A stretch of DNA of 28,122 nt, from the UHGV virus genome UHGV-1710763, one strand, 5' to 3'. Shown here piece after piece: positions 2,822 to 18,367 of this stretch. Position numbers and translations under genes: made by a program. Position 1 is the first letter of the stretch. Each line of letters begins with the position of its first letter. This DNA is from a virus. Below the pieces are notes generated by a model that was not told where the DNA came from, did not search any database, and saw only the letters and a list, made by a program, of their open reading frames with translations.

Positions 2822-3325
2822 CTATAATTGTAGGTTGCATTCTTTACTTACCTCTTCAAGTTTAACTTCAGAGTCCTTAAGTCGTTTCTTATGAACTCTG
2901 AATCTTAGTAGTGAGATTATGATACCAGCTAAAGGAACAGCATACAAGTACCAAACATCATATACCTTTGCAGTAATCTGTGTAATAGTCAAGTCTTGAG
3001 CTATGTAGCTGATTGCTGATACGGCTAGTAATGTTGCTAAGAAGAAAACCAGTATCATAGCAATATTCAGACAACCTCTGGCATGGTATTCATGCTTAAT
3101 GCACTTATTCTTCTCTTCAACAACACTGTTGTAGTCATTTGTAAAGTCTCTGTAGAAAGCTTTCAAGTATTCTTGAGTGTAGCCTTCAAAGCAACCTGTA
3201 CCATACCAATAATCACCACCAAAATGCGCTATGATACCGGTATCCCCATTTGGTTTGGTTACTCTCAAAGAGGTGTGATGACGAGTATCTTGATAGTCTA
3301 TTTTGTATCTTTCTTCATAAATCAT
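2822..3325 (-). CDS. putative membrane protein with two hydrophobic helices
   Basis: Hydrophobic segments IAMILVFFLATLLAVSAISYIA and VWYLYAVPLAGIIISLL in the translation. Confidence 0.5.
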   Translation of the reverse strand: MIYEERYKIDYQDTRHHTSLRVTKPNGDTGIIAHFGGDYWYGTGCFEGYTQEYLKAFYRDFTNDYNSVVEEKNKCIKHEYHARGCLNIAMILVFFLATLLAVSAISYIAQDLTITQITAKVYDVWYLYAVPLAGIIISLLRFRVHKKRLKDSEVKLEEVSKECNLQL

Positions 3326-3540
3326 TTTCCAATCCCTCTCAATCGTTTATTCCACTCAAGGTCAACAAGTCTTTGCAGGACTTTCCCTCTAGGTGTTACA
3401 CCTTTTAAATCTGCATCGTAGCAACGGTAAAAGTCACCTTCAGCGTGTTTACCGTAGCATTTTCTGATATTCTGACTCCTACGATATTGTTCTAATAGGG
3501 ACAGTTTGTAGTAATCTTCAACTGTAGTTAGTTTTTTCAT
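3322..3540 (-). CDS. hypothetical protein (72 aa)
   Basis: ORF-track ORF; 4-nt start/stop overlap with the downstream gene. Confidence 0.5.
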   Translation of the reverse strand: MKKLTTVEDYYKLSLLEQYRRSQNIRKCYGKHAEGDFYRCYDADLKGVTPRGKVLQRLVDLEWNKRLRGIGK

Positions 3541-3612
3541 TTTTCACCACGCATCTTCTTAAGAAGCTAAAAAGGGAACTACCTCTCGATAGCTCCCATT
3601 ATAGTCAATATT

Positions 3613-4203
3613 TTATACTCGGCAAGAGTACTTCTTAGGCATTAATGCACTGCGTTTGCTACTTTCTTCACTCAATAGTGCGATAAAGTCATCACCTTTA
3701 CCTTTCCACGGGCTGAATGAAGGGATATGCTCACGAATAGCCTCAATAACCGTCTTAAGTGCTGTATTTTTCATCCACCAATCAGAATCTGCTGATGCCA
3801 CTACGTAGTATCCACCTTCATCAGTCAGAATTGGCTCTGAGATACATGGAGAAATCAAAGTTGTGATGATTGAACCATTGTTCATGTAGTATGTACGCTT
3901 AATAACCTTTTCAAGAAGCTTGTGTAGGTCACCAAACAGTGTGACAAGCTCTTTATGGTCAATGTCTTTTTCGAGGCTTGCTCGATACTTCAATAGTGCA
4001 GCATCAACTTCTCTGTCATTGAATTTGAAGTATTGTACTTCATCAACAAGGCAAACACTGATATTGTTGACATTCATAGTCAACTTACAGACTTTTGCAG
4101 GAGAATTGATACTTGGTTGAAAAAGTGCAACACAACCTTCAATGTTCCCAAAATGTTGGACTAGTGTTACTTGTGGGGTAATATTCTGTTGCTCTTCGGA
4201 CAT
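3613..4203 (-). CDS. hypothetical protein (196 aa)
   Basis: ORF-track ORF, operon context. Confidence 0.55.
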   Translation of the reverse strand: MSEEQQNITPQVTLVQHFGNIEGCVALFQPSINSPAKVCKLTMNVNNISVCLVDEVQYFKFNDREVDAALLKYRASLEKDIDHKELVTLFGDLHKLLEKVIKRTYYMNNGSIITTLISPCISEPILTDEGGYYVVASADSDWWMKNTALKTVIEAIREHIPSFSPWKGKGDDFIALLSEESSKRSALMPKKYSCRV

Positions 4204-4547
4204 TACAGTTTCCTCATTAAATACTTTTTAAGTTGTGTGTTAGGTTTCTCAAAAACTTCTATAGAAGATATCTTGACAGATTCACCACGCATACCTGTAT
4301 GTTTGAATATATAGTACTCTAGCATTCCTATATACTTTGCTGGCAAGTCATGTTTGACATACACCGTTACAGAATCTTCAAATTCAACAACCTTTGTACC
4401 ATCTTTGTAGTTAAACTCTTTAGGATAGTTGTAGTTGTCGATGTCGTACATTAAAAAGAGTCTTTTCCGTTGCATGTCAAGCTTATTGGTTAAAGACTCT
4501 TTGATATCTGAGAAGTTTTTGTACACTATGACGTGGAGCTTACTCAT
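4203..4547 (-). CDS. hypothetical protein (114 aa)
   Basis: ORF-track ORF, abuts neighbouring genes. Confidence 0.5.
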   Translation of the reverse strand: MSKLHVIVYKNFSDIKESLTNKLDMQRKRLFLMYDIDNYNYPKEFNYKDGTKVVEFEDSVTVYVKHDLPAKYIGMLEYYIFKHTGMRGESVKISSIEVFEKPNTQLKKYLMRKL

Positions 4548-4833
4548 CGTTAAACTCTCTGACGAAGAAATAGTTGACTTTATTATTACCTACCATAAGG
4601 TCAAAGCAGGTGTTCTCAAAAGGCTTGTTGTAGGCATCATATGAAGTGTACGTATCAGCTACTTGCTTAGTAGTGAGCTTTTTACTTGATGGACTTAAGA
4701 GGCCACCATACAGTTTCTTGATAGCCTCTTCTACAACAGACCAGATAATTTCGTCAGTAATTTCTTCGTACAGGTCAAGTTCACGCTCTAGTGAGAAGTC
4801 ACAAATAGGGAAAACAACCTGTACTTTACTCAT
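4540..4833 (-). CDS. hypothetical protein (97 aa)
   Basis: ORF-track ORF, overlapping coupling with neighbours. Confidence 0.5.
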   Translation of the reverse strand: MSKVQVVFPICDFSLERELDLYEEITDEIIWSVVEEAIKKLYGGLLSPSSKKLTTKQVADTYTSYDAYNKPFENTCFDLMVGNNKVNYFFVREFNDE

Positions 4834-9339: not shown

Positions 9340-10755
9340 ATGAGCGAATTATTTAAACATGCGCACCTTCATGCAGGTCGAACTGAAAATGGTGCTGTAA
9401 ACCATACTTCATCAATGTCTGCTCTTGTAGACTTTTACAAAGCTGCTGGTTCAAGCCGTAGCAATGTAGAAATCTTACCAGACCTGTTCTACAAAGCTTT
9501 GCGTGAGGATGTTGATGTTGCAGTTCGTATTTTACTGCATATGCGAGATGTACGAGAAGGTATGGGTGAGCGTAAAGCCTTCAGAACTGTTTTGCTTCAA
9601 GCAATTGAAGATAAAGTTTTAGAGCCTACACAGGTTCTTCGCATTATGGATAAGATTGCAGAACTTGGTCGTTTTGATGACTTCAAAATCTTCGTAGGTA
9701 CTCGTTTCGAGACAGATGCCTTCAAACATTTAGAAGCAGCATTACTAGACCCTGCAACAGCAGGTTTGGCAGCTAAGTGGTTACCACGAGTAAAACCACG
9801 TCACAAACAGTTTGTAAAACGTTTCTGCAAGTTTGCAAACTTGAGTGAGAAGGAGTATCGCACACTGTTATCTGCACTGTCTGATACGGTTGAGCAAAAA
9901 ATCTCTGCTAATGAGTTTGGTAAGATTGACTACAGTAAGATTCCTTCACTTGCTGCTGCACGTTACCAAAAACTCTTTAACCGTAAAGATGGAGAACGCT
10001 ACAAAGCTTACATTGAGTCCTTATCAAAGGGCGAGACTAAGATTAATGCTGGTGCTGTTTATCCATACGATGTGATTAAATCTGTTAAGTATGGTAATGC
10101 AGATGTTGCTAATGAGCAGTGGAAAGCACTACCAAACTGGATGGCAGAGGGTGAAAACATTCTATGTATGTCTGATGTTTCAAGTTCAATGTCTTGGGTG
10201 AATTTTGGTTCAATTACTGCTCTTGATATTGGTGTTTCACTTGCATTGTATGTAGCAGAACGTAATACAGGTTGCTTTAAGAATGAGTTGATGGTTTATT
10301 CAACAAACCCTCACTTCATTGAACTGAGTGGTGATTTACGAAACCGTCATCGTCAGGTGATGCGACACGTTGAATATGGCTCAACTAACTTACAAGCAGC
10401 TTTTGACCGTATTCTTGAGACAGGTAAAAGAAACAACTTGACTCAGAAAGATATGCCAAGTAAGCTTATCATCTTCTCCGATATGGAGTTCAATCAGGTT
10501 GATGGAGCTAACGGTCGTACAAACTTTGAAGCAATTCAGAGTAAGTACAAAAAAGCTGGATATGAGATGCCACAACTGGTATTCTGGTACTTAGCAAACC
10601 GTAATGGCACTTGCGAAGTATCTGTTAAGGATAACGGTGTAGCAATGGTATCTGGTTTCTCTCCAGCCACTTTAAAAGCTTTGCTTGGTGGTGAGAAGTT
10701 TGACCCAATCAGCGTAATGCTCAAAGCAGTAATGATTGACCGTTATATCTGGTAA
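9340..10755 (+). CDS. Ro60/TROVE-like protein: alpha-helical N-terminal region plus C-terminal vWA domain with MIDAS motif (Rsr-like)
   Basis: MIDAS DxSxS in ILCMSDVSSSMSW; C-terminal IIFSDMEF; YPYDVIKSV segment; helical N-terminus. These parallel Ro60 segments as recalled from memory (HPFHILIAL, LLAVDVSASMN, VFIVFTDNE). Confidence 0.55.
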   Translation: MSELFKHAHLHAGRTENGAVNHTSSMSALVDFYKAAGSSRSNVEILPDLFYKALREDVDVAVRILLHMRDVREGMGERKAFRTVLLQAIEDKVLEPTQVLRIMDKIAELGRFDDFKIFVGTRFETDAFKHLEAALLDPATAGLAAKWLPRVKPRHKQFVKRFCKFANLSEKEYRTLLSALSDTVEQKISANEFGKIDYSKIPSLAAARYQKLFNRKDGERYKAYIESLSKGETKINAGAVYPYDVIKSVKYGNADVANEQWKALPNWMAEGENILCMSDVSSSMSWVNFGSITALDIGVSLALYVAERNTGCFKNELMVYSTNPHFIELSGDLRNRHRQVMRHVEYGSTNLQAAFDRILETGKRNNLTQKDMPSKLIIFSDMEFNQVDGANGRTNFEAIQSKYKKAGYEMPQLVFWYLANRNGTCEVSVKDNGVAMVSGFSPATLKALLGGEKFDPISVMLKAVMIDRYIW

Positions 10756-10765
10756 AAAGTTTTAA

Positions 10766-10802
10766 AAAGGGTATTGACAATGTGTTTGATACCCTTTAAT
10801 AT
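10766..10802 (+). promoter_or_regulatory. sigma70-like promoter (TTGACA-17-TAATAT) embedded in a 9-bp-stem hairpin just after the Ro60-like gene
   Basis: TTGACA 10774-10779, TAATAT 10797-10802; inverted repeat AAAGGGTAT (10766-10774) / ATACCCTTT (10789-10797). Confidence 0.55.
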
Positions 10803-10864
10803 TTTCTACATAGAAACGAAATGAGAGCTTTTCTAAGATACTGAAAAATATTTTAAAAAAGTTC

Positions 10865-10894
10865 TTGACAATCACTAAAAAATAATGTTAAAGT
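10865..10894 (+). promoter_or_regulatory. sigma70-like promoter ahead of the first tRNA
   Basis: TTGACA at 10865-10870; TAAAGT at 18-nt spacing; AAAAAAGTTCTTGACA upstream context. Confidence 0.45.
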
Positions 10895-10920
10895 GGTTAC
10901 ATAGAGTTTGAAAAGTTTAT

Positions 10921-10997
10921 CTCTGTTTAGCTCAGCTTGGTAGAGCGTTCCGTTTGGGGCGGTAAGGCCGGAGGTTCAAGTCCTCCAACAGAGACCA
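10921..10997 (+). tRNA. tRNA-Pro (anticodon TGG)
   Basis: Hand-folded cloverleaf: acceptor CTCTGTT / AACAGAG, D-arm GCTC..GAGC, anticodon loop TTTGGGG, T-arm GGAGG-TTCAAGT-CCTCC, encoded CCA. Confidence 0.7.
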
Positions 10998-11004
10998 AAT
11001 TAAT

Positions 11005-11082
11005 GTTCCAGTAGACAAAATGGTAAAGTCACCACTCTTTCAAAGTGGATATCTGAGGGTTCAAATCCCTTCTGGAACGCCA
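11005..11082 (+). tRNA. tRNA-Glu (anticodon TTC)
   Basis: Acceptor GTTCCAG / CTGGAAC; anticodon stem CCACT / AGTGG with loop CTTTCAA; T-loop TTCAAAT; CCA. Confidence 0.75.
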
Positions 11083-11173
11083 GTTTTGACAGAAGACCAA
11101 TTACAGCAAACTTAATCTTATTCATCTGAAGGTAAATCGGACAAAGAAGAGATTTGGTCTGGTCATTAAGAAT

Positions 11174-11250
11174 TGCGGGTATAGAGAAAGGGCGTCTCAC
11201 ATGTCTCATTAGCATGGTATCGGCAGGTTCGACTCCTGCACCCGCCTCCA
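11174..11250 (+). tRNA. tRNA with CAT anticodon (Met, fMet or Ile-lysidine; identity unresolved)
   Basis: Anticodon stem CATGT / GCATG with loop CTCATTA; T-arm GCAGG-TTCGACT-CCTGC; acceptor has a 1:72 mismatch; CCA. Confidence 0.65.
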
Positions 11251-11334
11251 AATTTACAGAAGACCGTTTACAGCAATACTTATTAAATTTTTAGCGGAAA
11301 AAATTGAAATATACGGTCTGGTAATACTAAACAT

Positions 11335-11411
11335 GGTTAGGAAGCACATAAGGTATGTGCGGTCGCCTGTTAAGCGAATGGCACAGGGTTCGAATCCCTG
11401 ACTAACCGCCA
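11335..11411 (+). tRNA. tRNA-Asn (anticodon GTT)
   Basis: Acceptor GGTTAGG / ACTAACC; D-arm GCAC..GTGC; loop CTGTTAA; T-arm CAGGG-TTCGAAT-CCCTG; CCA. Confidence 0.75.
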
Positions 11412-11480
11412 AATTTAGGAGAGAAGCAATTGCTCACCGATTTGTAAGGTGCAAGTCCTTAGCCTGAATAGAAATTAAAT

Positions 11481-11568
11481 GTGTCGTTATCCCGTAGATG
11501 GTAGCGGTGGGGACTGTAAATCCCTTGTCATTGAGACTCGGTAGGTTCGACTCCTACACGGCACACCA
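11481..11568 (+). tRNA. tRNA-Tyr (anticodon GTA), class II with long variable arm
   Basis: Acceptor GTGTCGT / ACGGCAC; anticodon stem GGGGA / TCCCT with loop CTGTAAA; ~15-nt variable arm; T-arm GTAGG-TTCGACT-CCTAC; CCA. Confidence 0.65.
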
Positions 11569-11573
11569 ATAAA

Positions 11574-11651
11574 GGTTATGTAGTTTAATTTGGTTAAAAT
11601 ACTCCCCTGTCACGGGAGATGATGAGGGTTCAAATCCCTTCGTAACCGCCA
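11574..11651 (+). tRNA. tRNA-Asp (anticodon GTC)
   Basis: Acceptor GGTTATG / CGTAACC; anticodon stem CTCCC / GGGAG with loop CTGTCAC; T-loop TTCAAAT; CCA. Confidence 0.75.
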
Positions 11652-11834
11652 ATTTTGAGAGGGCTATTTAGCCCCTCCCTTAAAGGGTTCTTACGAGTAT
11701 CCTTTAAAGGAGCAGAAGACCAAATACAGCAAGTTACTTAAAATTTCAAGCCAATTTAATTTTGAAAAATTTAAAACTTGGTCTGGCTCAACAAATTTAC
11801 AGAAGACCGTTTACAGCAAAACTTAAACAATCTA

Positions 11835-11907
11835 TTTCTCCGGTAAAGAAAAGGCGAAGGTTCGATTCCTTCACTCGGCAGATGTCGAGTTGGTGTAATG
11901 GTAGCAC
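11835..11907 (+). ncRNA. circularly permuted tRNA-like element (anticodon-like hairpin, T-arm, acceptor stem closed by an AGAT loop, D-arm); candidate Y-RNA-like tRNA mimic
   Basis: Order read directly: TTTCT-CCGGTAA-AGAAA, GAAGG-TTCGATT-CCTTC, ACTCGGC-AGAT-GTCGAGT (7 bp), TG, GTG-TAATGGTAG-CAC; no 5' acceptor partner upstream and no 3' half downstream. Confidence 0.35.
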
Positions 11908-11932
11908 TTAAGATGATAAACAACGGTCTGGT

Positions 11933-12076
11933 AATTATCTTTGTAGATAAGTTATTAAGCTTACCTGTGAGTATGCGACCACAAAGGGTGAAAGGGTAAA
12001 TTCTAGATTTAAACCTAACAAGGCACATCGCTACAGACCTTAAGCAAGTCTGGGTAGCTTATCTACAAAGATAATT
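11933..12076. repeat. perfect 18-19-bp inverted repeat flanking a ~106-bp segment (long hairpin, possible RNase III site or miniature element)
   Basis: ATTATCTTTGTAGATAAG at 11934-11951 is the exact reverse complement of CTTATCTACAAAGATAAT at 12058-12075. Confidence 0.6.
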
Positions 12077-12080
12077 TAAT

Positions 12081-12156
12081 GGAAGTGTAGCAGAATGGTG
12101 ATGCGGCAGACTTTTAATCTGACAGGCGATGGGTTCGAATCCCTCCACTTCTACCA
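12081..12156 (+). tRNA. tRNA-Lys (anticodon TTT)
   Basis: Acceptor GGAAGTG / CACTTCT; anticodon loop CTTTTAA; T-loop TTCGAAT; CCA; paralogue of the Lys(CTT) gene at 13309. Confidence 0.75.
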
Positions 12157-12161
12157 AAAAT

Positions 12162-12238
12162 GGTTCAGTCGCAGATAAGGTAATGCAAGGGTTTCATAAG
12201 CCCTATGAATGTGGGTTCGATTCCCACCTGAACCTCCA
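12162..12238 (+). tRNA. tRNA with CAT anticodon (second copy; Met / fMet / Ile2 unresolved)
   Basis: Acceptor GGTTCAG / CTGAACC perfect; anticodon stem AGGGT / GCCCT with loop TTCATAA; T-arm GTGGG-TTCGATT-CCCAC; CCA. Confidence 0.7.
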
Positions 12239-12239
12239 A

Positions 12240-12315
12240 GCTGGTATAGTTAAGAAGGTTATAACACTCCCCTGATAAGGGAACATCGGTGGTTCGATTC
12301 CACCTACCAGTACCA
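12240..12315 (+). tRNA. tRNA-Ile (anticodon GAT)
   Basis: D-arm GTTA..TAAC; anticodon loop CTGATAA; T-arm GGTGG-TTCGATT-CCACC; CCA. Confidence 0.7.
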
Positions 12316-12330
12316 ATTTCAATAAAGTTG

Positions 12331-12359
12331 TTGACATTGAGATGTGACTACTTTATAGT
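12331..12359 (+). promoter_or_regulatory. strong sigma70-like promoter inside the tRNA island (TTGACA-17-TATAGT)
   Basis: TTGACA 12331-12336, exactly 17-nt spacer, TATAGT 12354-12359, with the AATAAAGTTGTTGACA upstream context. Confidence 0.6.
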
Positions 12360-12562
12360 AACCTTAGTTTTCGTTGCGTAGCGTCTATTTTGCAAATTTA
12401 AAATAAATGCAAACGACAATGTTTTTCTGGCAGTAGCTTGATAGGCTAAACACCAGTGAGGTCTTCCAATCCCTCATCAAAGAATTTGGCGTACTAGCCC
12501 ACGGTATGATTAATAAGGTGGGCATCTTTAAGGGCTTTCTAAGAGAGTCTTTAAAGATTAAT

Positions 12563-12639
12563 GCACCCTTAGTTCAATTGGATAGAGCAACGGTCTTCTA
12601 AATCGTTAGTTACAGGTTCGAATCCTGTAGGGTGTACCA
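12563..12639 (+). tRNA. tRNA-Arg (anticodon TCT)
   Basis: Acceptor GCACCCT / AGGGTGT; D-arm GTTC..GAGC; anticodon stem ACGGT / ATCGT with loop CTTCTAA; T-arm ACAGG-TTCGAAT-CCTGT; CCA. Confidence 0.75.
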
Positions 12640-12780
12640 ATTAGTTAGCAGATTACTTAGACGACCTAAGCGGGTCTTCCTGTAGGGAGGTGGTCTGTAT
12701 CTCATGTTTTCCAGAACATGTAAATAATCTGAGAAGGGGCTTTACAGTGTTGAGATAATACGGTAAGCTTCGAATTATAG

Positions 12781-12867
12781 TATGGGACGATGTTAAGACT
12801 CTAAGGCATGAGCAACGGCTTCCAACACCGTTTCAAAGGGGTTCAACTCATCCGTCCCATGCCAAAG
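12781..12867 (+). ncRNA. unresolved tRNA-like structured element (11-bp terminal stem, 9-nt-loop hairpin with CTTCCAA, T-loop-like GGGGTTCAA, ends GCCA)
   Basis: TATGGGACGATG pairs with CATCCGTCCCATG; internal hairpin AACGG-CTTCCAACA-CCGTT; no canonical cloverleaf could be drawn. Confidence 0.3.
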
Positions 12868-12877
12868 TCTTATTAGG

Positions 12878-12965
12878 GGTAGGTAGCGGCTAATGGTAGC
12901 CAAACAGTCTTGAAAACTGTTGCCACTGTAGAGATACGGTGAGGGTTCGACTCCTTTACTTACCG
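12878..12965 (+). tRNA. tRNA-Ser (anticodon TGA), class II; CCA not encoded
   Basis: Acceptor GGTAGGT / ACTTACC; anticodon stem ACAGT / ACTGT perfect with loop CTTGAAA; long variable arm; T-loop TTCGACT. Confidence 0.6.
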
Positions 12966-13223
12966 CCTAATAAGATTTTACACCGTCCATGCTTGCTCGC
13001 ATTTTCGGTTTATCCCTCGTGTATTGTCGTACACACTGATAAAGCACCTAGTAGGTGTCACGGAGAAGAGATAATATCAAGCTCTCCAAAGGTTCTAGCC
13101 ACCGGATTAAACAAGACTATGCAAAGACCTTTTTAGGTCTTTTTAGAGGGCTTCTAAGGTTATTACAGCTTGTTGTGGAACCTTGTTGCTTAGGTTCTTA
13201 GAAGTTCTCTAAAAAGATTTAAT

Positions 13224-13301
13224 GGGAGATTGACGGTAATTGGTAAACCTACCATCCTTAGAAGTTGGTGTTTGAGGGTTCGAATCCCTTGTCTCCTACC
13301 A
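13224..13301 (+). tRNA. tRNA, anticodon provisionally TAG (Leu) on a class-I-length scaffold; identity uncertain
   Basis: Acceptor GGGAGAT / GTCTCCT (two G-U pairs); loop CTTAGAA between CCATC / GTTGG (one mismatch); T-arm GAGGG-TTCGAAT-CCCTT; CCA; D-arm irregular. Confidence 0.5.
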
Positions 13302-13308
13302 AATTAAT

Positions 13309-13384
13309 GCAGGTGTAGCAAAATGGTTATGCGGCTGACTCTTAATCAGTAAGACGATGGGTTCAATTCCCTCCACCTGTACCA
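13309..13384 (+). tRNA. tRNA-Lys (anticodon CTT)
   Basis: Acceptor GCAGGTG / CACCTGT; anticodon stem GCTGA / TCAGT with loop CTCTTAA; T-loop TTCAATT; CCA. Confidence 0.75.
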
Positions 13385-13391
13385 AACAATG

Positions 13392-13467
13392 GGGGTCATA
13401 GTTTATATGGTTAAAATTCGAGTTTTGCAAACTTGGGAACTGAGTTCAATTCTCAGTGACTCCACCA
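13392..13467 (+). tRNA. tRNA-Ala (anticodon TGC)
   Basis: Acceptor GGGGTCA / TGACTCC; anticodon stem CGAGT / ACTTG with loop TTTGCAA; T-arm CTGAG-TTCAATT-CTCAG; CCA. Confidence 0.75.
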
Positions 13468-13473
13468 ATTAGT

Positions 13474-13548
13474 GCATCCATAGTTTAAACGGGAAAATTA
13501 CAGTCTTCCAAACTGAGGTTGAGGGTTCGATTCCCTCTGGATGCTCCA
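13474..13548 (+). tRNA. tRNA-Gly (anticodon TCC)
   Basis: Acceptor GCATCCA / TGGATGC perfect; loop CTTCCAA; T-arm GAGGG-TTCGATT-CCCTC; CCA. Confidence 0.75.
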
Positions 13549-13562
13549 AATTAAGGTGTGAT

Positions 13563-13976
13563 ATGAAAATATGCAGTACTTGCAGAATACCAAAAGATGA
13601 AAGCTTATTCCATAAGAATAAGAACAAGAAAGACGGTCTTCAAAGTCAATGCAAAGATTGTGCAAGACTTCGTGATGCAAAGAGTTATCAAGCAAATGAT
13701 AAAAGGAAAGAGGCTATTAAAAGCACTCGTAACTTCAAGAGAGAGCATAACAAGACTCTAGCTAGAAGGTACAAAGCTTTATGCAAATGTCATATATGTG
13801 GTGAGAAAGAACCAGTTGCACTGGATTTACACCATACAGACCCTTCCCAGAAAGATTTGAATCCTGCATCACTTTATTCATACTCCACAAAAAGATTAAA
13901 AGATGAAATCAGAAAGTGCATTGTCTTGTGCGCTAACTGTCACAGAAAAGTACATGCTGGTATCATAAAAGTTTAA
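13563..13976 (+). CDS. HNH family endonuclease (free-standing homing-endonuclease-like gene)
   Basis: Cys pairs CKDC and CKCHIC plus an HNH core (LDLHHTD ... N ... CANCHRKVH) in the translation; sits between tRNA-Gly and tRNA-Thr. Confidence 0.7.
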   Translation: MKICSTCRIPKDESLFHKNKNKKDGLQSQCKDCARLRDAKSYQANDKRKEAIKSTRNFKREHNKTLARRYKALCKCHICGEKEPVALDLHHTDPSQKDLNPASLYSYSTKRLKDEIRKCIVLCANCHRKVHAGIIKV

Positions 13977-13977
13977 T

Positions 13978-14054
13978 GCTGCTTTCGTATAATTGGCTAT
14001 TACACATCCCTTGTAAGGATGGAAATGCAGGTTCGAGTCCTGTGAGCAGCACCA
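13978..14054 (+). tRNA. tRNA-Thr (anticodon TGT)
   Basis: Acceptor GCTGCTT / GAGCAGC; anticodon stem CATCC / GGATG perfect with loop CTTGTAA; T-loop TTCGAGT; CCA; starts 2 nt after the HNH stop codon. Confidence 0.8.
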
Positions 14055-14149
14055 ATTCAGAGGTCAAGTGAAAGACCGCTGGTGTCAACTGAAGACCGTA
14101 ACAAATTCCACGGAGTTGAGTTAGCGGCACAACTTCAGACCTCTTTCAT

Positions 14150-14224
14150 ACTCGCTTAGTTTATATGGTAAAACATCACCCTTACAAGATGAAGAGAAAG
14201 GTTCAAGCCCTTTAGTGAGTACCA
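14150..14224 (+). tRNA. tRNA-Val (anticodon TAC)
   Basis: Acceptor ACTCGCT / AGTGAGT; D-arm GTTT..AAAC; loop CTTACAA; T-arm AAAGG-TTCAAGC-CCTTT; CCA. Confidence 0.65.
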
Positions 14225-14225
14225 T

Positions 14226-14303
14226 GTTCCAGTATCCCAATTGGCAGAGGATGCAAGCTCAAACCTTGTACTAGTGACGGTTCGAATCCGTCTTGGAACA
14301 CCA
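14226..14303 (+). tRNA. tRNA with CAA anticodon (Leu-type) but only a 6-nt variable region
   Basis: Acceptor GTTCCAG / TTGGAAC; anticodon stem GCAAG / CTTGT with loop CTCAAAC; T-arm GACGG-TTCGAAT-CCGTC; A73; CCA. Confidence 0.6.
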
Positions 14304-14308
14304 ATTTT

Positions 14309-14384
14309 GCAGGATTAGTTCAAATGGATAGAGCAACAGTCTACGAAGCTGTTAATAGGGGTTCGAATCCCTTATCCTGCGCCA
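14309..14384 (+). tRNA. tRNA-Arg (anticodon ACG)
   Basis: Acceptor GCAGGAT / ATCCTGC perfect; D-arm GTTC..GAGC; anticodon stem ACAGT / GCTGT with loop CTACGAA; T-loop TTCGAAT; CCA. Confidence 0.8.
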
Positions 14385-14403
14385 ATTTAAAGAGGCTATT
14401 TAG

Positions 14404-14961
14404 ATGAGATATTTGAAGTATGCTTCATGGATTTTCTTAGCTTTGTTAGAGCCATTTGCAGCAATCTTAGCAGTTATCTTAGCACCTTTTGTAGTTCCAT
14501 TCTACAGTGAGAAGAAAGGACACTTACCTTTCGGATTCAGATGGATGGAGACATATGACAACCCAATTGATGGTGATGAAGGTCACGTTAAAAGATGGGC
14601 TAATATTAGATGGATTGGTAAACTAGGTGTCTACATGCAAAGAGTCGGATGGCTCTGGAGAAACAAAGCTTATAACTTCTCTTACCATGTATTAGGAAGA
14701 GATGTAAAAGATGTTACTAAGTGGAAAGGTAATATCAACGTAAGTTCTAACCCTGAAGATAATCAGACAGGTTATCTCCTAATGTGGAACAGCAATGCTT
14801 GGGGATTATTCGCTTTTATCCCATCAATTAAAATCTTTGGTAAACAGTTCTACTGGAGAATTTATATTGGGTGGAAGCTAAAAAGTGTTGTCCCAGAAGA
14901 AAGAGCATTCTCAAGGGAAAGAGTTATGTTGGCATTCTTTATTCATCCACTAAGAAAGTAA
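14404..14961 (+). CDS. hypothetical membrane protein (hydrophobic N-terminus, Trp-rich)
   Basis: ORF-track ORF; N-terminal hydrophobic stretch WIFLALLEPFAAILAVILAPFVV; embedded between tRNA genes. Confidence 0.55.
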   Translation: MRYLKYASWIFLALLEPFAAILAVILAPFVVPFYSEKKGHLPFGFRWMETYDNPIDGDEGHVKRWANIRWIGKLGVYMQRVGWLWRNKAYNFSYHVLGRDVKDVTKWKGNINVSSNPEDNQTGYLLMWNSNAWGLFAFIPSIKIFGKQFYWRIYIGWKLKSVVPEERAFSRERVMLAFFIHPLRK

Positions 14962-14969
14962 AGATTTAA

Positions 14970-15045
14970 AGGGGATTAGTTTACAAGGTTAAAACCTCGG
15001 TCTTTGAAATCGAAGAAGTTGGTTCAATTCCAACATCCCCCGCCA
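14970..15045 (+). tRNA. tRNA-Gln (anticodon TTG)
   Basis: D-arm GTTT..AAAC; anticodon stem TCGGT / ATCGA with loop CTTTGAA; T-arm GTTGG-TTCAATT-CCAAC; weak 1:72 pair; CCA. Confidence 0.7.
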
Positions 15046-15047
15046 AT

Positions 15048-15126
15048 GCTCCATTACTCCAATTGGCAGAGAGGCCAGACTTAAAATCTGTGTTATGTAT
15101 CGGTTCGAATCCGATATGGAGTACCA
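15048..15126 (+). tRNA. tRNA with TAA anticodon (Leu-type) but only a 7-nt variable region
   Basis: Acceptor GCTCCAT / ATGGAGT; anticodon loop CTTAAAA; T-arm ATCGG-TTCGAAT-CCGAT; A73; CCA. Confidence 0.6.
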
Positions 15127-15131
15127 AATTT

Positions 15132-15207
15132 AGCGGTATAGCATAACTGGCAATGCAACAGTCTCTGAAGCTGTCTTATTAAGGTTCAAATCCTTATGCC
15201 GCTGCCA
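15132..15207 (+). tRNA. tRNA-Gln (anticodon CTG)
   Basis: Acceptor AGCGGTA / TGCCGCT; anticodon stem ACAGT / GCTGT with loop CTCTGAA; T-arm TAAGG-TTCAAAT-CCTTA; CCA. Confidence 0.7.
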
Positions 15208-15238
15208 CTTCTAAGGGTTCTTACGAGAGTCCTTAAAT

Positions 15239-15314
15239 GTGGCCTTATCATAAATGGTAATGACCCATGCTGTGAACATGGTCTATACGGGTTCAAATCC
15301 CGTAGGTCACCCCA
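15239..15314 (+). tRNA. tRNA-His (anticodon GTG)
   Basis: Acceptor GTGGCCT / AGGTCAC; D-arm TCAT..ATGA; anticodon stem CCATG / CATGG perfect with loop CTGTGAA; C73 discriminator; CCA. Confidence 0.75.
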
Positions 15315-15321
15315 ATTTATA

Positions 15322-15396
15322 GTCCAAGTAGCTTATATGGTTAAAGCGCGTGTCTGAAAAACATGAGAAGAGGGTTCAAATCCCACTGGACTACCA
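15322..15396 (+). tRNA. tRNA-Phe (anticodon GAA); acceptor register ambiguous
   Basis: D-arm GCTT..AAGC; anticodon stem CGTGT / ACATG with loop CTGAAAA; T-loop TTCAAAT; ends ACCA. Confidence 0.65.
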
Positions 15397-15412
15397 ATTT
15401 CAAAGGTGCTTA

Positions 15413-16147
15413 ATGAAAGAGATGACAGAACAAGGTAAGGAGATTTTTAATCTCTTAAAAACCGGTAAAGGGTTTTCTAACCCACTTATTACTGGTGCAG
15501 CAGTTCTCGGTGGAACCGTAGCTGCCTCTACATCACTTGTAAGCTCTATTAGCTCTGTAACAGACCCTACAACGAAGGAGAAACTTGTTGCTGCTGGACT
15601 TACAACAGTTCTTCTAAACAGCTTTACAACAAGCCTGACAAGCACTACAGCAACTACTAAGACCCTAACAGACTACGGTCAAAAGTCTATTGATGAGTTT
15701 TCATCACGTATGCAGGTGGCAAAGGGATATTCCAATGTTATGGGTGCAGCAGGAGAACAAGTTGGTTGTACACCATTCAGTGGTATTATGGGTGTTGCTA
15801 CAGAGTATGGTCAGCAAGCTATTGACATGATTAACAGCACACTAGACAGTGTTAACGGTGTGTTAAGTGACTTACAAGATGCTATTGACAAGGGTCTTGA
15901 TACTGTTTCTGATTTAGCTAACCAAGCTGTAAGTAAGATTAATGAAGGTATTTCAAAGATTACAGCTTATGCAGATGAAGTTGTGCAGATGATTGAAGAA
16001 GAAGCTGCCCTTATTGCAGAGTACCTTAAAACGAATATCAATGGGTTCTTAGCAGGTATCTTACCAGACTGGTTTGATGATGCCTGTAAAACTGGTGTAA
16101 TTGACACTATTGCAACACCAGAAATGAAGAACGCATTACAGAAATAA
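15413..16147 (+). CDS. hypothetical Ser/Thr-rich protein; start moved downstream of the track ORF (15350) to the first ATG clear of tRNA-Phe
   Basis: Track ORF 15350..16147 overlaps the tRNA at 15322-15396; the in-frame ATG at 15413 has AAAGGTG upstream. Confidence 0.55.
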   Translation: MKEMTEQGKEIFNLLKTGKGFSNPLITGAAVLGGTVAASTSLVSSISSVTDPTTKEKLVAAGLTTVLLNSFTTSLTSTTATTKTLTDYGQKSIDEFSSRMQVAKGYSNVMGAAGEQVGCTPFSGIMGVATEYGQQAIDMINSTLDSVNGVLSDLQDAIDKGLDTVSDLANQAVSKINEGISKITAYADEVVQMIEEEAALIAEYLKTNINGFLAGILPDWFDDACKTGVIDTIATPEMKNALQK

Positions 16148-16148
16148 T

Positions 16149-16241
16149 GGAAGATTAACCCTAAAAGGTAAGGGAGCAGTTTGCTAAACTGCCAGTAGCT
16201 GAGAAATCGGTGTACCAGTTCAAGTCTGGTATCTTCCTCCA
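16149..16241 (+). tRNA. tRNA-Ser (anticodon GCT), class II with long variable arm
   Basis: Acceptor GGAAGAT / ATCTTCC perfect; anticodon stem GCAGT / ACTGC perfect with loop TTGCTAA; ~20-nt variable arm; T-arm ACCAG-TTCAAGT-CTGGT; CCA. Confidence 0.8.
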
Positions 16242-16245
16242 ATTT

Positions 16246-16321
16246 GAATCCGTGACAGAAATGGCTATGTGCCTGTCTGCAAAACAGGTTTATAAGGGTT
16301 CGAGTCCCTTCGGATTCTCCA
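16246..16321 (+). tRNA. tRNA-Cys (anticodon GCA)
   Basis: Acceptor GAATCCG / CGGATTC perfect; anticodon stem CCTGT / ACAGG perfect with loop CTGCAAA; T-arm AAGGG-TTCGAGT-CCCTT; CCA. Confidence 0.8.
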
Positions 16322-16358
16322 AGTTATTTTACTCTCTCTCAATTAAAATAATAATAAT

Positions 16359-16418
16359 GCCCTGCTATAAGTATTCTTCCTTTCGCTACCGAAGAGTATT
16401 TTTAGACAGGGCTTTTTT
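16359..16418 (+). terminator. compound hairpin followed by a T-run (terminator closing the tRNA island)
   Basis: GCCCTG ... CAGGGC followed by TTTTTT at 16413-16418, with an inner imperfect hairpin. Confidence 0.45.
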
Positions 16419-16483
16419 ACAGAGTTATACTTTATAAGAAGCCTTATACAGTATGTCTCTGACGTACATTGTGGTTTCTCCTT

Positions 16484-16507
16484 GACGGTCTCTGTACCGT
16501 CTTTTTT
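16484..16507 (+). terminator. Rho-independent terminator
   Basis: GACGGT-CTCTGT-ACCGTC followed by TTTTTT. Confidence 0.6.
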
Positions 16508-16543
16508 AAGGGGAAACATGATTAACTATTTGGAGAAAACATA

Positions 16544-16744
16544 ATGAGCGAGACCGTTTATAAAGAACTTTATGAAGCTAATAAGAAGCTAGAATTTATG
16601 CAGAATACTATCATGGCAATTGCAGACAGATTGTCTGTAGCAACAGGTATTGATATTAAAGAAGCATCTATGGATGCACTTCTTGATGCTGTTGATGCAA
16701 AGTTCGAAGTTAAGAAAGAAGAGACTGCTACAGACTCTGAATAA
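16544..16744 (+). CDS. hypothetical protein (66 aa) immediately upstream of the large terminase
   Basis: ORF-track ORF; GGAG ribosome-binding site upstream; position is typical of a small packaging protein but nothing in the sequence confirms that. Confidence 0.45.
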   Translation: MSETVYKELYEANKKLEFMQNTIMAIADRLSVATGIDIKEASMDALLDAVDAKFEVKKEETATDSE

Positions 16745-16765
16745 TTCTATTTGCGGAGGCGCTTA

Positions 16766-18367
16766 ATGGACTTAAATGCTGTTAAGCAGAAGCGAGTGGA
16801 AGATGTTAGGAAAGTCCTAGCTGGAGAGTTGGGGCTTTCTGATGAAGTAAAAGAAATTATCAAATCATTCGGTAAAGACCCCTCTAAATTCCTTCCAACT
16901 CAAATTCTGACTTTATTAAGATACACACCAGACCAAGTTAGACTTATCTTCAAATTGATGACTGATAAGAACTATGTAGCCCCTCAGCCGGGTTCTCAAG
17001 AGGTCTTTTTAAATACTAATGCTGACTTGGTTCTCTATGGTGGTGCTGCTGGTGCTGGTAAAACTGCTGCATTGTTAATGGACTCTTTAAGATTTATTGA
17101 AGACCCTAACTATAATGCTGTATATTTCCGTCGAAATACAACACAGCTACAAGGTGGTTTATGGCCTGCTGCAAAGAAACTATTTGGTAAGTTTGGTGGG
17201 ATTCCTCACGAGCAGAAAATGACTATCACATTCCCTTCTGGGGCAACTATCAAGTTTACCTACCTAGAACTTGAAAAGCACGCTGAAGGTCATCAGGGTA
17301 TTGAATACTCAGCTATTTACTTTGACGAAGGTACACACTTCTCTGCTTCACAGATTTCATACCTACAAACCCGTCTACGTTCTGGTGCTGAAGGCGATTC
17401 ATACATGAAGATTTCCATGAACCCAGACAGAGACCATTTTATTTATGATTGGGTAGAACCATTCTTAGATGAAGAAGGTTATCCAGACCCTGAAAAGTGT
17501 GGTCGTATTCGTTGGTATGTAATGAACGATGGCGTGATGGTTTCTGATTGGGAGAGAGACAAGATTCTTGAAATGTTCCCTCTTGAGATTCCTCAAACAT
17601 ACACCTTCATCTCTGGTACGATTGATGATAACCCAATTCTTGACTTCTTAGAACCAAAGTATCGCGGTAAGCTTGAAACCAACACTCCTGTAAACGTTGC
17701 AAGACTTCGTTTCGGTAACTGGAAGGCTCGTGCAGAAGGTTCAAACTATTGGCAAAGACAATGGTGTGAGATTGTTGATTCACTCCCAGAAGATGTATTT
17801 GATGTTAGAGCATGGGACTTAGCAGCAACTTTACCATCTGAGATTAACCCTAATCCAGACTGGACAGCAGGTGTTAAGATGGGTAAATCTAAAAAAGACG
17901 GTTGCTATTATATCATTGATGTAGTAAGATTTAGAGATAGACCCTCTGGAGTCGAAACACAAATTAATTTGACTGCTGAAAGTGACGGTAAGCGAACTGG
18001 TATTTTTATCCCTCAAGACCCAGGCGCTGCTGGTAAATCCTACGCAACATCCCTCATCAGGAAACTTGCCGAGAAAGGCTATCGTGCAAGAGCTAAACCA
18101 ACAAATAAAGATAAAGTTACCCGCTTTGCGGGATTTTCTGCTGCTTCTGAAGCTGGACTTGTAAAAGTCTTGAGAGGTAGTTGGAATGAAGCTTACTTTC
18201 AAGAGCTTGAAGGCTTTTGTGGTGACGGCAAAACTAAAGATGACCAAGTGGATGCTACCAGTGATGCTTTCAACAGTCTGAACGAAGTTAAATTATTCAA
18301 GCCACCATCAATGGGTGCTCACACAGACTTAGTGAGAGGAAACCCATATGAGGGGCTTAGACGTTGA
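16766..18367 (+). CDS. terminase large subunit
   Basis: Walker A motif GGAAGAGKT in LVLYGGAAGAGKTAALL; ~530 aa; track ORF starts at a TTG at 16751, so the ATG at 16766 with GGAGG 5 nt upstream is preferred. Confidence 0.8.
   Translation: MDLNAVKQKRVEDVRKVLAGELGLSDEVKEIIKSFGKDPSKFLPTQILTLLRYTPDQVRLIFKLMTDKNYVAPQPGSQEVFLNTNADLVLYGGAAGAGKTAALLMDSLRFIEDPNYNAVYFRRNTTQLQGGLWPAAKKLFGKFGGIPHEQKMTITFPSGATIKFTYLELEKHAEGHQGIEYSAIYFDEGTHFSASQISYLQTRLRSGAEGDSYMKISMNPDRDHFIYDWVEPFLDEEGYPDPEKCGRIRWYVMNDGVMVSDWERDKILEMFPLEIPQTYTFISGTIDDNPILDFLEPKYRGKLETNTPVNVARLRFGNWKARAEGSNYWQRQWCEIVDSLPEDVFDVRAWDLAATLPSEINPNPDWTAGVKMGKSKKDGCYYIIDVVRFRDRPSGVETQINLTAESDGKRTGIFIPQDPGAAGKSYATSLIRKLAEKGYRARAKPTNKDKVTRFAGFSAASEAGLVKVLRGSWNEAYFQELEGFCGDGKTKDDQVDATSDAFNSLNEVKLFKPPSMGAHTDLVRGNPYEGLRR

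Follow-up and report, generated by a model that had tools for sequence, protein, structure and literature searches.

We analysed a 28,122-nucleotide (nt) stretch of viral DNA, UHGV virus genome UHGV-1710763 (hereafter the window; positions refer to it, and all of its features named below lie on the plus strand), which carries a large array of transfer RNA (tRNA) genes at 10921-16321. We consider it likely that this array represents a Felix O1-like phage's tRNA operon, in which a divergent ribonucleoprotein (RNP) of the Ro60/Y RNA type is embedded. New here is an unannotated module, a Ro60-like protein together with small RNAs, that is a variant of the Ro60/Y RNA kind. A preliminary description of the array, based on the letters of the sequence, had listed its tRNAs and overlooked the gene of the Ro60-like protein as well as the four RNAs, described here, that are not tRNAs.

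A Ro60-fold protein is predicted to be encoded just upstream of the tRNA array

Just upstream of the array lies an open reading frame (ORF) for a protein of 471 amino acids (9340-10755). Its only Pfam matches are DUF2828 and DUF7788, it belongs to phrog_850 ('RNA-binding protein') and it is labelled 'vWFA protein' in relatives. More than 2500 database relatives were found, mostly in phages, and the family is present on at least 591 viral contigs. A structural model predicted with AlphaFold from 45 relatives reached a predicted local distance difference test (pLDDT) value of 88.4 and a predicted template modelling (pTM) score of 0.88. When this model was compared with the PDB using Foldseek, the 12 best matches were all Ro60, Rsr or TROVE structures aligned over the full length (template modelling score up to 0.65, E 2e-7 to 3e-6), among them Xenopus Ro60, D. 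radiodurans Rsr and the Ro60 of the Thermus phage phiLo. The matches that followed were isolated vWA domains only, with E > 2e-3. The residues of the metal ion-dependent adhesion site (D279, S281, S283, T349 and D381) are invariant among the 45 relatives, nine of which match the Pfam family vWA_Ro60. As judged from the model, the DUF2828 gene heading the array encodes a Ro60-fold protein, consisting of an alpha-helical, HEAT-like ring and, after it, a vWA domain.

Four spacer RNAs share a common architecture

Four RNAs predicted at 11091-11936, in the spacers of the array, share the architecture AAG-stem-U(A/U)CAGCAA...stem-CUG. All four were recovered in an unfiltered search of the window with the R1 covariance model described below (E 2e-17 to 4e-3). 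Copy 1 (11091-11167, between tRNA-Glu and tRNA-Met; 30.3 bits, E 4.8e-4) is a short RNA that reads AAG-ACCAA-UUACAGCAA...UUGGU-CUG. Copies 2 (11258-11326, between tRNA-Met and tRNA-Asn; 38.3 bits, E 1.6e-5) and 3 (11714-11791, after tRNA-Asp; 25.4 bits, E 3.7e-3) are also short. Copy 4 (11801-11936; 103.7 bits) is a long RNA, in which the outer stem and the motif surround a circularly permuted tRNA-like module. The three short copies were also matched by a model-free descriptor (see below) at 11094-11161, 11261-11320 and 11717-11785, respectively. In the window copies the motif takes the forms UUUACAGCAA, AUUACAGCAA and AAUACAGCAA.

The module of copy 4 contains a perfect T arm outside any called tRNA (11856-11872). 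From 5' to 3' it consists of a variable (V) arm, this T arm, a 3' acceptor strand (ACTCGGC), an AGAT loop, a 5' acceptor strand (GTCGAGT), the dinucleotide UG and a D arm; in RNA letters, GAAGG-UUCGAUU-CCUUC, ACUCGGC-AGAU-GUCGAGU, UG and GUGU-AAUGGUA-GCAC. The acceptor stem thus has 7 base pairs (bp) and is closed by a loop of 4 nt that lacks CCA, the D arm is canonical, and the nucleotides of tRNA tertiary contacts (U8, A14, G18, G19 and T54-C56) are present. The module is closed at its acceptor end and open at the position of the would-be anticodon loop, where it is enclosed by the outer stem AGACCGTT/AACGGTCT, the 5' strand of which is followed by TACAGCAA. The minimum free energy (MFE) fold of 11801-11936 gave this architecture unaided, with an ordinary z-score of -1.4. 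A permuted tRNA gene of the Cyanidioschyzon type and a two-piece transfer-messenger RNA (tmRNA) were rejected as identities of copy 4: there is no anticodon loop and no tag reading frame, the 'anticodon stem' runs into the conserved outer stem, and ARAGORN makes no tmRNA call.

The repeated box AGAAGACC-NNN-TACAGCAA occurs four times, within the window only here (0.37 occurrences expected), and each copy has its complement 45-130 nt downstream, with the NNN positions co-varying. One could read the conserved CAGAAGACC...TACAGCAA boxes as DNA promoters, host-type or phage-specific, for subclusters of tRNA genes. They are located 5' of such subclusters, and copies 1, 2 and 4 overlap TTGACA or TTTACA together with a weak -10 element (11253-11280, 9/12). 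We nevertheless regard this reading as highly improbable and rejected it on account of the covariation with a downstream partner, which promoters do not need. Moreover, promoter-like matches are not enriched (23 sigma-70-like matches, compared with 20.3 +/- 4.2 in shuffles), and distant members of the family keep motif and stem outside any -35/-10 context. At 11087, 11253 and 11796, TTGACA/TTTACA boxes flank structured RNAs on the 5' side and are not evidently promoters.

The RNA family accompanies DUF2828 genes in distant phages

The same architecture was followed through a sample of 80 viral contigs carrying DUF2828 relatives, most of them at 39-47% identity (contigs and loci are designated L). 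A scanner blind to the motif, which asked only for a T arm, an acceptor strand, a short loop and the complementary strand, returned the element of the window and its copies in Felixounavirus; it further returned permuted modules lacking CCA in L014, L018, L022, L024, L031 and L057, where ARAGORN calls no tRNA. At tRNA-tRNA junctions, about 0.04 chance matches are expected per T arm; several matches of this kind were discarded. All seven independent permuted elements carry T(T/A)C(A/C)GCAA upstream, after a stem strand, and the complement of that strand 3' of the D arm. The outer stem has a different, co-varying sequence in each of the seven.

These seven seeds were combined in a structure-guided, N-padded alignment (a MAFFT alignment was unusable in the 3' half), from which the R1 covariance model was built. 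The model gave 128 matches in 994 kb, every one of them on the strand of the DUF2828 gene. At distant loci, 58% of the matches are no further than 300 nt from the ends of the gene, where 5.7% would be expected. Matches fall into two sizes, a long form of about 105-190 nt with the tRNA-like module and a short form of about 60-75 nt. Members of the family begin with AAG and a stem of 6-8 bp that is free in sequence, continue with the invariant U(A/U)CAGCAA and a body that varies, and close with the return strand and CUG. In the 22 best matches, 95% of the cells were paired, compared with 61% for shuffles and about 40% after sliding of the partners, and compensatory changes were seen in seven of eight outer-stem pairs and in all seven acceptor pairs; the alignment had been fitted to the model, and these pairing counts are therefore inflated, a bias that an independent scan with the model-free descriptor mitigates. 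This descriptor, AG-N5-(0-3 nt)-T[ATG]C[AC]GCA[AGT]...revcomp(N5)-CTG, found 72 matches on the gene strand, none on the opposite strand and 0.3 in shuffles. It was positive at no fewer than 44 of the 75 distant loci, and 52 matches lie no more than 500 nt from the gene. From these sequence comparisons, the RNA family is very probably real and linked to DUF2828 genes.

In the window and in L007, the RNAs are placed between tRNA genes. They are also present at DUF2828 loci without tRNA genes (L010, L012, L015, L016, L027 and L036), and hence the core association is that of the RNA with DUF2828 and not with tRNAs. This bears on a simpler explanation, namely that the four elements are signals acting in cis on the processing or stability of the tRNA precursor (RNase III or RNase E entry sites, or spacers), that the permuted piece is debris of tRNA-gene rearrangement or homing-endonuclease traffic, and that no protein partner exists. 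The position of the elements between tRNAs would fit such an origin, as would the insertions of HNH genes that visibly remodel the array among relatives, the T-loop remnants at 11448 and 12840 and the strong structure of further spacers. In contrast to debris, the closed acceptor and the outer stem show compensatory changes across deep divergence, and both strand and position associate the elements with the DUF2828 gene, the same motif and co-varying stems adjoining it even where tRNA genes are lacking. We thus hold a role in cis to be improbable and favour an RNA that would work with the DUF2828 protein.

A fifth descriptor match (14448-14657; AGAGCCA-TT-TGCAGCAA ... TGGCT-CTG, 210 nt) lies inside the coding sequence of the DUF7338 ORF, and may be due to chance, a relic or an overlapping element. 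At other DUF2828 loci, a tRNA array begins directly 3' of the gene (L008, L009, L013, L014, L017, L018, L031 and others) or a tmRNA gene lies within a few kb of it (L032 1317-1767, L033 11822-12176, L039 12119-12479 and L063 8619-9092); DUF2828 seems to be generally embedded in neighbourhoods of translation RNAs. At jumbo-phage-like loci (L008, L009, L014, L018, L031, L032, L034 and L035), ARAGORN reports a 'tRNA-Ile (TAT)' of 90-95 nt and a 'tRNA-Thr (TGT)' of 82-85 nt; these long calls may be atypical tRNAs, intron-containing genes or more tRNA mimics.

The module compared with Ro60 and its Y RNAs

Ro60 and Y RNAs are known from mycobacteriophages, CcrColossus, phage G, phiLo and some jumbo phages, and the Ro60 of phiLo binds the phage-encoded Y-like RNAs Yrl1 and Yrl2 (PMC12135203). 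In the literature, no example was found for FelixO1-like phages or for DUF2828; the papers that name DUF2828 concern plants and a tardigrade genome. As in systems of Ro60 with YrlA and YrlB, the gene of a ring-plus-vWA protein has small RNAs alongside on the same strand. YrlA RNAs are recognised by their proximity to the protein gene (about 4 kb, same strand), and the long RNA of the window starts 1046 nt after the stop codon of its gene, the product of which is Ro60-like by fold only. The T, acceptor-like and D stem-loops and the tertiary nucleotides that mark the YrlA module are all found in copy 4, which shares with YrlA a terminal stem and a permuted module made of a T arm, a closed acceptor-like stem and a D arm. 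The shorter RNAs share the putative protein-binding end only, as is also seen among Y RNAs. Proteins of the Ro60/Rsr group hold Y RNA at their outer surface and take up the ends of misfolded RNA in the central hole. The YrlA of M. smegmatis, with 7 bp in its acceptor stem, is cleaved by RNase P and receives CCA (PMC4201824). Since the acceptor stem of copy 4 likewise has 7 bp, cleavage by RNase P and the addition of CCA are plausible for the phage RNA.

The module also differs from these systems. The window protein belongs to DUF2828/DUF7788 and not to TROVE, with 11-16% identity to solved Ro60s, and its RNAs are embedded in a tRNA operon. In this last respect they resemble RNAs of phage T4, the tRNA cluster of which contains co-transcribed stable RNAs, species 1 and 2 (RNA C and D), that are released by the tRNA-processing machinery. 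Small stable RNAs other than tRNAs are encoded within a phage tRNA operon in both cases; we know of no Ro60-like partner of the T4 RNAs.

Several observations weigh against a Ro60/Y RNA-like RNP, besides the inflation of the pairing counts given above. In Pfam, TROVE is matched neither by the window protein nor by any of the 45 relatives, and a family profile searched against the PDB reached Xenopus Ro60 only at a marginal E of 0.72. Taken together, phmmer, the family profile and Pfam TROVE gave an essentially negative answer on membership in Ro60 at the sequence level, where the link to the Ro60 vWA domain is faint, and the fold search alone was decisive. Thermodynamically, the four RNAs do not stand out (z-scores of -0.8 to -1.4). 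The GNCGAA(N0-1)G motif near the 5' end, through which YrlA binds Rsr, is absent, the phage RNAs having U(A/U)C(A/C)GCAA instead. The Rfam model of YrlA (RF02553) gave no match on 11780-11960 at E up to 10, and over five loci it gave a single match of 22.3 bits (gathering threshold 69) that overlaps ordinary tRNAs. Finally, the pairing of RNA and protein is drawn from conserved adjacency and from analogy. We therefore regard the module as one that would work like a Ro60/Y RNA system and do not assign it to the YrlA family. On balance, and by analogy with Ro60, we expect the RNA to bind the DUF2828 protein, although with less assurance than attaches to the RNA family itself.

A working model can be outlined as follows. 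Host RNA polymerase would transcribe the array as one or a few polycistronic precursors, beginning at about 10865 and ending with the 16484 terminator. These precursors would be cut by RNase P and RNase E, and processing of the tRNAs would free the interspersed RNAs. The phage tRNAs could then sustain translation of the AT-rich phage mRNAs without dependence on the tRNA pool of the host. The stem-plus-UACAGCAA end of the RNAs would dock on the ring of the DUF2828 protein, in analogy to Ro60 with YrlA or YrlB, and the tRNA mimic might recruit a factor that handles or recognises tRNAs, or an exonuclease, as Y RNA tethers polynucleotide phosphorylase to Rsr. The assembled RNP may survey or degrade misfolded phage tRNA precursors. 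This specific role in quality control, likewise suggested by analogy, is our best guess. The tRNAs of the related Shigella phage Sf14 were reported to be thermodynamically weaker than those of the host, with a mean dG of -21.5 compared with -30.3 kcal/mol (PMC12482277).

These results allow a very large phage protein family (DUF2828, 'vWFA', 'RNA-binding protein') to be recognised as Ro60-fold. Together with a co-varying family of small RNAs and a permuted tRNA mimic, they extend the Ro60/Y RNA paradigm to common enterobacterial phages, which include FelixO1 and members of the BASEL collection and are used in typing and therapy. That the module often heads phage tRNA operons suggests a dedicated quality control or protection of phage tRNAs.

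The spacer RNAs resemble Class I RNAs of Dictyostelium

The Rfam family of Dictyostelium Class I RNAs, RF01414, was the top match for all four window copies over the full model length, with 19.7, 21.3, 15.3 and 12.8 bits for copies 1 to 4. In a pre-specified test on five unrelated contigs, RF01414 matched L027 (26.1 bits), L063 (24.4 bits) and L055 (23.4 bits), in each case exactly at the site of a short RNA beside a DUF2828 gene. It was thus the top Rfam match for seven phage copies from four lineages. For the three pre-specified matches, the E values (1.2-6.1) carry a factor of 4227 families and correspond to family-specific values of about 3e-4 to 1.4e-3. The gathering threshold of RF01414 (41.5 bits) was reached by no copy, the scores being 12.8-26.1 bits, and a scan of 11 loci at that threshold gave no match. 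The RF01414 consensus itself fits the model-free descriptor.

For a comparison by position, a phage consensus was derived from 80 distinct distant matches of the model; its percentages, given as subscript-like numbers below, are inflated, as the model that selected the matches contains the motif, and the motif-blind seeds agree with it. At the 5' end, Class I RNAs have AAG with a conserved G and the phage RNAs have A71-A76-G96. The terminal stem has 6 bp in Class I and 6-8 bp in the phage RNAs, in both with free sequence and compensatory changes; stem sequences differ between nearly all phage loci, with seven of eight stem pairs compensatory. Next to the 5' strand of the stem, Class I RNAs carry the 11-nt motif CCUUACAGCAA, in which U3, C6, C9, A10 and A11 are nearly invariant; the phage counterpart is N-N-U54-U97-(A/U)-C100-A81-G100-C100-A99-A91. 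The 3' end is CUGU in Class I and C96-U80-G100-(A/U)-U63 in the phage RNAs, and lengths are 42-65 nt and, for the phage short forms as delimited by predicted ends, 47-66 nt (Class I features from PMC7919456). In both groups the conserved 5' G pairs with the 3' C (96% each in phage) and the body is variable, and the C6, C9, A10 and A11 that are invariant in Dictyostelium are invariant in phage as well. The phage RNAs differ in that they occur in bacterial viruses, outside the context of a DUSE promoter, a eukaryotic element that in Dictyostelia lies about 60 nt upstream, and in the tRNA-like insertion of their long form, which is unknown in Dictyostelium.

Class I RNAs have been reported as unique to Dictyostelia, where they bind the RRM protein Rnp1A (PMC7919456). 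They are abundant and developmentally regulated, and their mechanism has been obscure for about 20 years. A pull-down with DdR-21, one of the Class I RNAs, recovered Rnp1A, GuaB, NdkC and the uncharacterised protein DDB_G0281243. At the level of sequence, the link between the phage RNAs and Class I RNAs is credible and statistically real, and it stays below the Rfam family threshold. Tentatively, and with rather more doubt than confidence, we propose that the two form one class and that their stem-plus-UACAGCAA end docks on Ro60-like DUF2828 proteins. If so, Class I RNAs would be Y-RNA-like partners of a Ro60-like protein, which could be DDB_G0281243, and the phage long form would show how Class I-like RNAs gain a tRNA-mimic effector module. 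The match in any case provides a testable hypothesis for an RNA class of obscure function.

The host phage and its 26 tRNA genes

When the region 10500-16800 was used in a nucleotide search, 232 phage records spanned at least 80% of it, at 93-97% identity (best 97%). They comprise many phages of E. coli, Salmonella and Shigella, as well as FelixO1 and LF82P1. By its nucleotide sequence, the window comes from a Felixounavirus (Felix O1-like) about 97% identical to FelixO1 and LF82P1, and the order of its genes and features (Ro60-like gene, tRNAs, terminase) is the same as in FelixO1 and phage finno. The tRNA array as such is already known, since arrays of Ounavirinae were published between 2010 and 2025: 22 tRNAs in FelixO1, explained by codon usage (PMC3185647), 23 in wV8 (PMC2674420) and 26 recognizing 19 amino acids in Sf14, the subject of a dedicated computational study (PMC12482277). 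The array of the window agrees with these in order, anticodons, flanking genes and 93-97% nucleotide identity, and with Sf14 in its 26 tRNAs for 19 amino acids and in the rationale of codon bias. Where tRNAs are concerned, the arrays differ only in their content of HNH endonuclease genes and in the presence or absence of a few tRNAs. The tRNA complement is therefore real and ordinary for the genus, and the array alone holds nothing new, 22-26 tRNAs and codon compensation having been analysed before in Felix O1-like phages. The Ro60-like nature of the upstream gene and the four spacer RNAs are annotated in none of the papers or records on FelixO1, wV8 and Sf14.

ARAGORN called exactly 26 tRNA genes, all on the plus strand and spanning 10921-16321, with the same anticodons and the same span as in the preliminary description, the tRNA count of which therefore stands. 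The covariance model check also bore it out: RF00005 accepts 24 of the 26 at or above its gathering threshold of 29 bits (33.4-65.2 bits), so that most of the hand-called genes are not rejected. The remaining two (Met-CAT at 11174-11250 and Tyr-GTA at 11481-11568) score below the threshold and fold as cloverleaves. The further statements that most genes encode CCA and that only Trp is missing were both confirmed. CCA is encoded in 25 of the 26 genes, the exception being Ser-TGA, which ends in GCC followed by T, and no tRNA-Trp was found in the array even with relaxed ARAGORN thresholds, which returned noise only. The T-loop motif GGTTCRANTCC occurs 30 times (1.85 expected by chance), and the spacers are short and A/U-rich. 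In a Rfam scan of the whole window with sensitive sub-scans, only tRNA reached threshold among described families; matches to tmRNA, permuted tmRNA, MIR473 and Plastid-ycf2 were by-products of tRNA T arms or hairpins.

The array starts with tRNA-Pro (TGG, 10921-10997, 57.7 bits) and tRNA-Glu (TTC, 11005-11082, 60.4 bits), followed by the Met-type tRNA with a CAT anticodon at 11174-11250, tRNA-Asn (GTT, 11335-11411, 48 bits), tRNA-Tyr (GTA, 11481-11568), which has a long variable arm and is marked pseudo in the FelixO1 record, and tRNA-Asp (GTC, 11574-11651, 65.2 bits). Beyond the long RNA come tRNA-Lys (TTT, 12081-12156), a second Met-type CAT tRNA (12162-12238, 56.9 bits), tRNA-Ile (GAT, 12240-12315), tRNA-Arg (TCT, 12563-12639) and tRNA-Ser (TGA, 12878-12967), the last with a long variable arm and, at 33.4 bits, the lowest Rfam score among the accepted genes. 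The next genes are tRNA-Leu (TAG, 13224-13301), tRNA-Lys (CTT, 13309-13384), tRNA-Ala (TGC, 13392-13467) and tRNA-Gly (TCC, 13474-13548), then tRNA-Thr (TGT, 13978-14054), tRNA-Val (TAC, 14150-14224), tRNA-Leu (CAA, 14226-14303) and tRNA-Arg (ACG, 14309-14384). They are followed by tRNA-Gln (TTG, 14970-15045), tRNA-Leu (TAA, 15048-15126), tRNA-Gln (CTG, 15132-15207), tRNA-His (GTG, 15239-15314; also pseudo in the FelixO1 record) and tRNA-Phe (GAA, 15321-15396). The array closes with tRNA-Ser (GCT, 16149-16241), which has a long variable arm, and tRNA-Cys (GCA, 16246-16321).

Some of these tRNAs have unusual features. The three tRNAs with Leu anticodons are 78 nt (TAG, CAA) or 79 nt (TAA) long, with a variable loop of 5-7 nt in place of the long arm of bacterial tRNA-Leu, and all have A73. 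Long variable arms are retained in the Tyr and both Ser tRNAs. In the distant relative L007, the Leu tRNAs are also short, at 77-78 nt. The tRNA-His has U-1 opposite C73, so that G-1, an identity element of the histidyl-tRNA synthetase, is not encoded. Each of the two CAT tRNAs bears part of the initiator signature and both have U73: the one at 11174-11250 has a U1-C72 mismatch, the acceptor sequence G2-C3-G4-G5-G6 and an unusual U37 (its counterpart in FelixO1 has a Cove score of 28.9; PMC3185647), and the one at 12162-12238 is paired at 1:72 and contains GGG/CCC in its anticodon stem. T-loop-like remnants outside called tRNAs were seen at 11448-11458 and 12840-12850. The latter is part of a tRNA-like fold (about 12780-12865) with a hairpin loop that holds CCA (CUUCCAACA); this fold, called by neither ARAGORN nor Rfam, could be a decayed tRNA-Trp. 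Neither the hairpin near 12810, the 9-nt loop of which contains CCA, nor the two remnants (11448 and 12840) are callable as tRNAs, and all were rejected as candidates for a tRNA-Trp.

Codon usage, defence and transcription of the array

Codon usage was compared between 16 long ORFs of the window (4803 codons) and 28 ORFs from only 50 kb of E. coli K-12, a host sample the small size of which tells against the comparison. Watson-Crick cognate codons of the phage tRNAs had a mean log2 ratio of relative synonymous codon usage (phage/E. coli) of +0.52, compared with -0.72 for other codons (Mann-Whitney p = 0.013). Phage/E. coli ratios were highest for AGA (15x), ACA (4x), CCA (3x), CTA (2.9x) and TCA and TTA (2.7x); the cognate codons are the A/U-ending ones that are favoured by the phage and avoided by E. 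coli. Four-codon boxes are each served by exactly one tRNA, always with U34, and split boxes by tRNAs with G34, U34 or C34. If U34 has a broad reading range, as is known from wobble by uridine-5-oxyacetic acid (cmo5U) and other U34, the set would almost amount to a self-sufficient decoder. CGG is absent from the 4803 codons, and ATA and UGG occur at 1.3 and 11.9 per 1000, respectively. Since ATA is rare, a lysidine-type tRNA-Ile2 seems unnecessary, and with no phage tRNA-Trp, UGG still needs that of the host. CCG, TCG, GCG and ACG hardly occur; the codons that the phage avoids are precisely those that U34-only tRNAs of four-codon boxes would read worst. The codon-usage compensation inferred earlier from the size of the tRNA set is thus supported by the sequence comparison, in agreement with PMC3185647 and PMC12482277.

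The set had also been suggested to confer resistance to host defences that cleave tRNAs, and in this the sequence lends no support. The anticodon loops of 11 of 25 tRNAs are identical to those of the host, including Lys-UUU, Tyr, Asn, Asp and Arg-UCU, which are classic nuclease targets (host loops from PMC12482277). The Sf14 study likewise rejects nuclease escape (PMC12482277). A broader anti-defence function of the array, possibly including the tRNA mimic, would be to replace or shield tRNAs cleaved by anticodon nucleases or by effectors of the retron or PARIS type, or to sustain translation after the phage has destroyed host tRNA genes or pools. The nearly complete decoding set is compatible with this, and 14 of the 25 loops deviate from the host loops at position 32 or 38; tRNAs of phage T5 have been reported to save infection from defences directed at tRNAs. 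An 'all-destructive' infection that depends on phage tRNAs is favoured in the Sf14 study (PMC12482277), even as its analysis rejects nuclease escape. The host-like loops of the classic targets speak against the idea, and no genes for RNA ligase or repair were seen among the annotated neighbours. We therefore consider a mainly anti-defensive array unlikely and favour codon-usage compensation for the tRNAs.

The earlier proposal that host-type promoters drive the array finds little support. Two near-consensus sigma-70-like sites are sensibly placed, one at 10865-10894 (TTGACA-18-TAAAGT with TG, 27 nt 5' of the first tRNA; a consensus match only) and the best match at 12331-12359 (TTGACA-17-TATAGT, 11/12), the same site as 'P45' predicted in FelixO1. 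The lack of overall enrichment noted above leaves the proposal weakly supported. The array is bracketed by two terminator-like hairpins. The first, just after the Ro60-like gene (10766-10797), is a 12-bp hairpin with a subsequent T-rich run and holds a TTGACA box; the second, 3' of the last tRNA (16484-16501), resembles an intrinsic terminator with a T6 run.

Other features of the array

A strongly structured spacer is found directly 5' of tRNA-Lys (11937-12080), with a 20-bp closing stem, an MFE of -43.1 kcal/mol and a z-score of -5.0 (0 of 200 shuffles as stable). Further structured spacers are located at 12420-12562 (z = -3.3), 14055-14149 (-2.9), 13080-13223 (-2.8) and 11652-11713 (-2.7). 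Three structured spacers end in a long, near-perfect hairpin (A)UCUUU...AAAGA(U), with (A)AUUUAAU or UAAU between it and the next tRNA. They may serve as processing sites of the RNase III type or represent additional RNAs.

Three ORFs lie within the array. Conserved phage ORFs are found at 14404-14961 (DUF7338, Pfam E 1.6e-61) and at 15413-16147 (DUF7217, 'putative membrane protein'). The ORF at 13563-13976 resembles an HNH homing endonuclease, with a weak match to Pfam HNH and an HNH endonuclease as its FelixO1 counterpart, and is absent from this position in L002-L006 and finno. The arrays of relatives differ mainly through insertions of such genes and losses of single tRNAs. The spacers that hold HNH genes vary between Felixounavirus genomes (in L001, for example, the genes lie at 3253-3738 and 4226-4618), and gain or loss of tRNAs (Arg-TCT, Arg-ACG, Asp and the second Met) accompanies their insertion.

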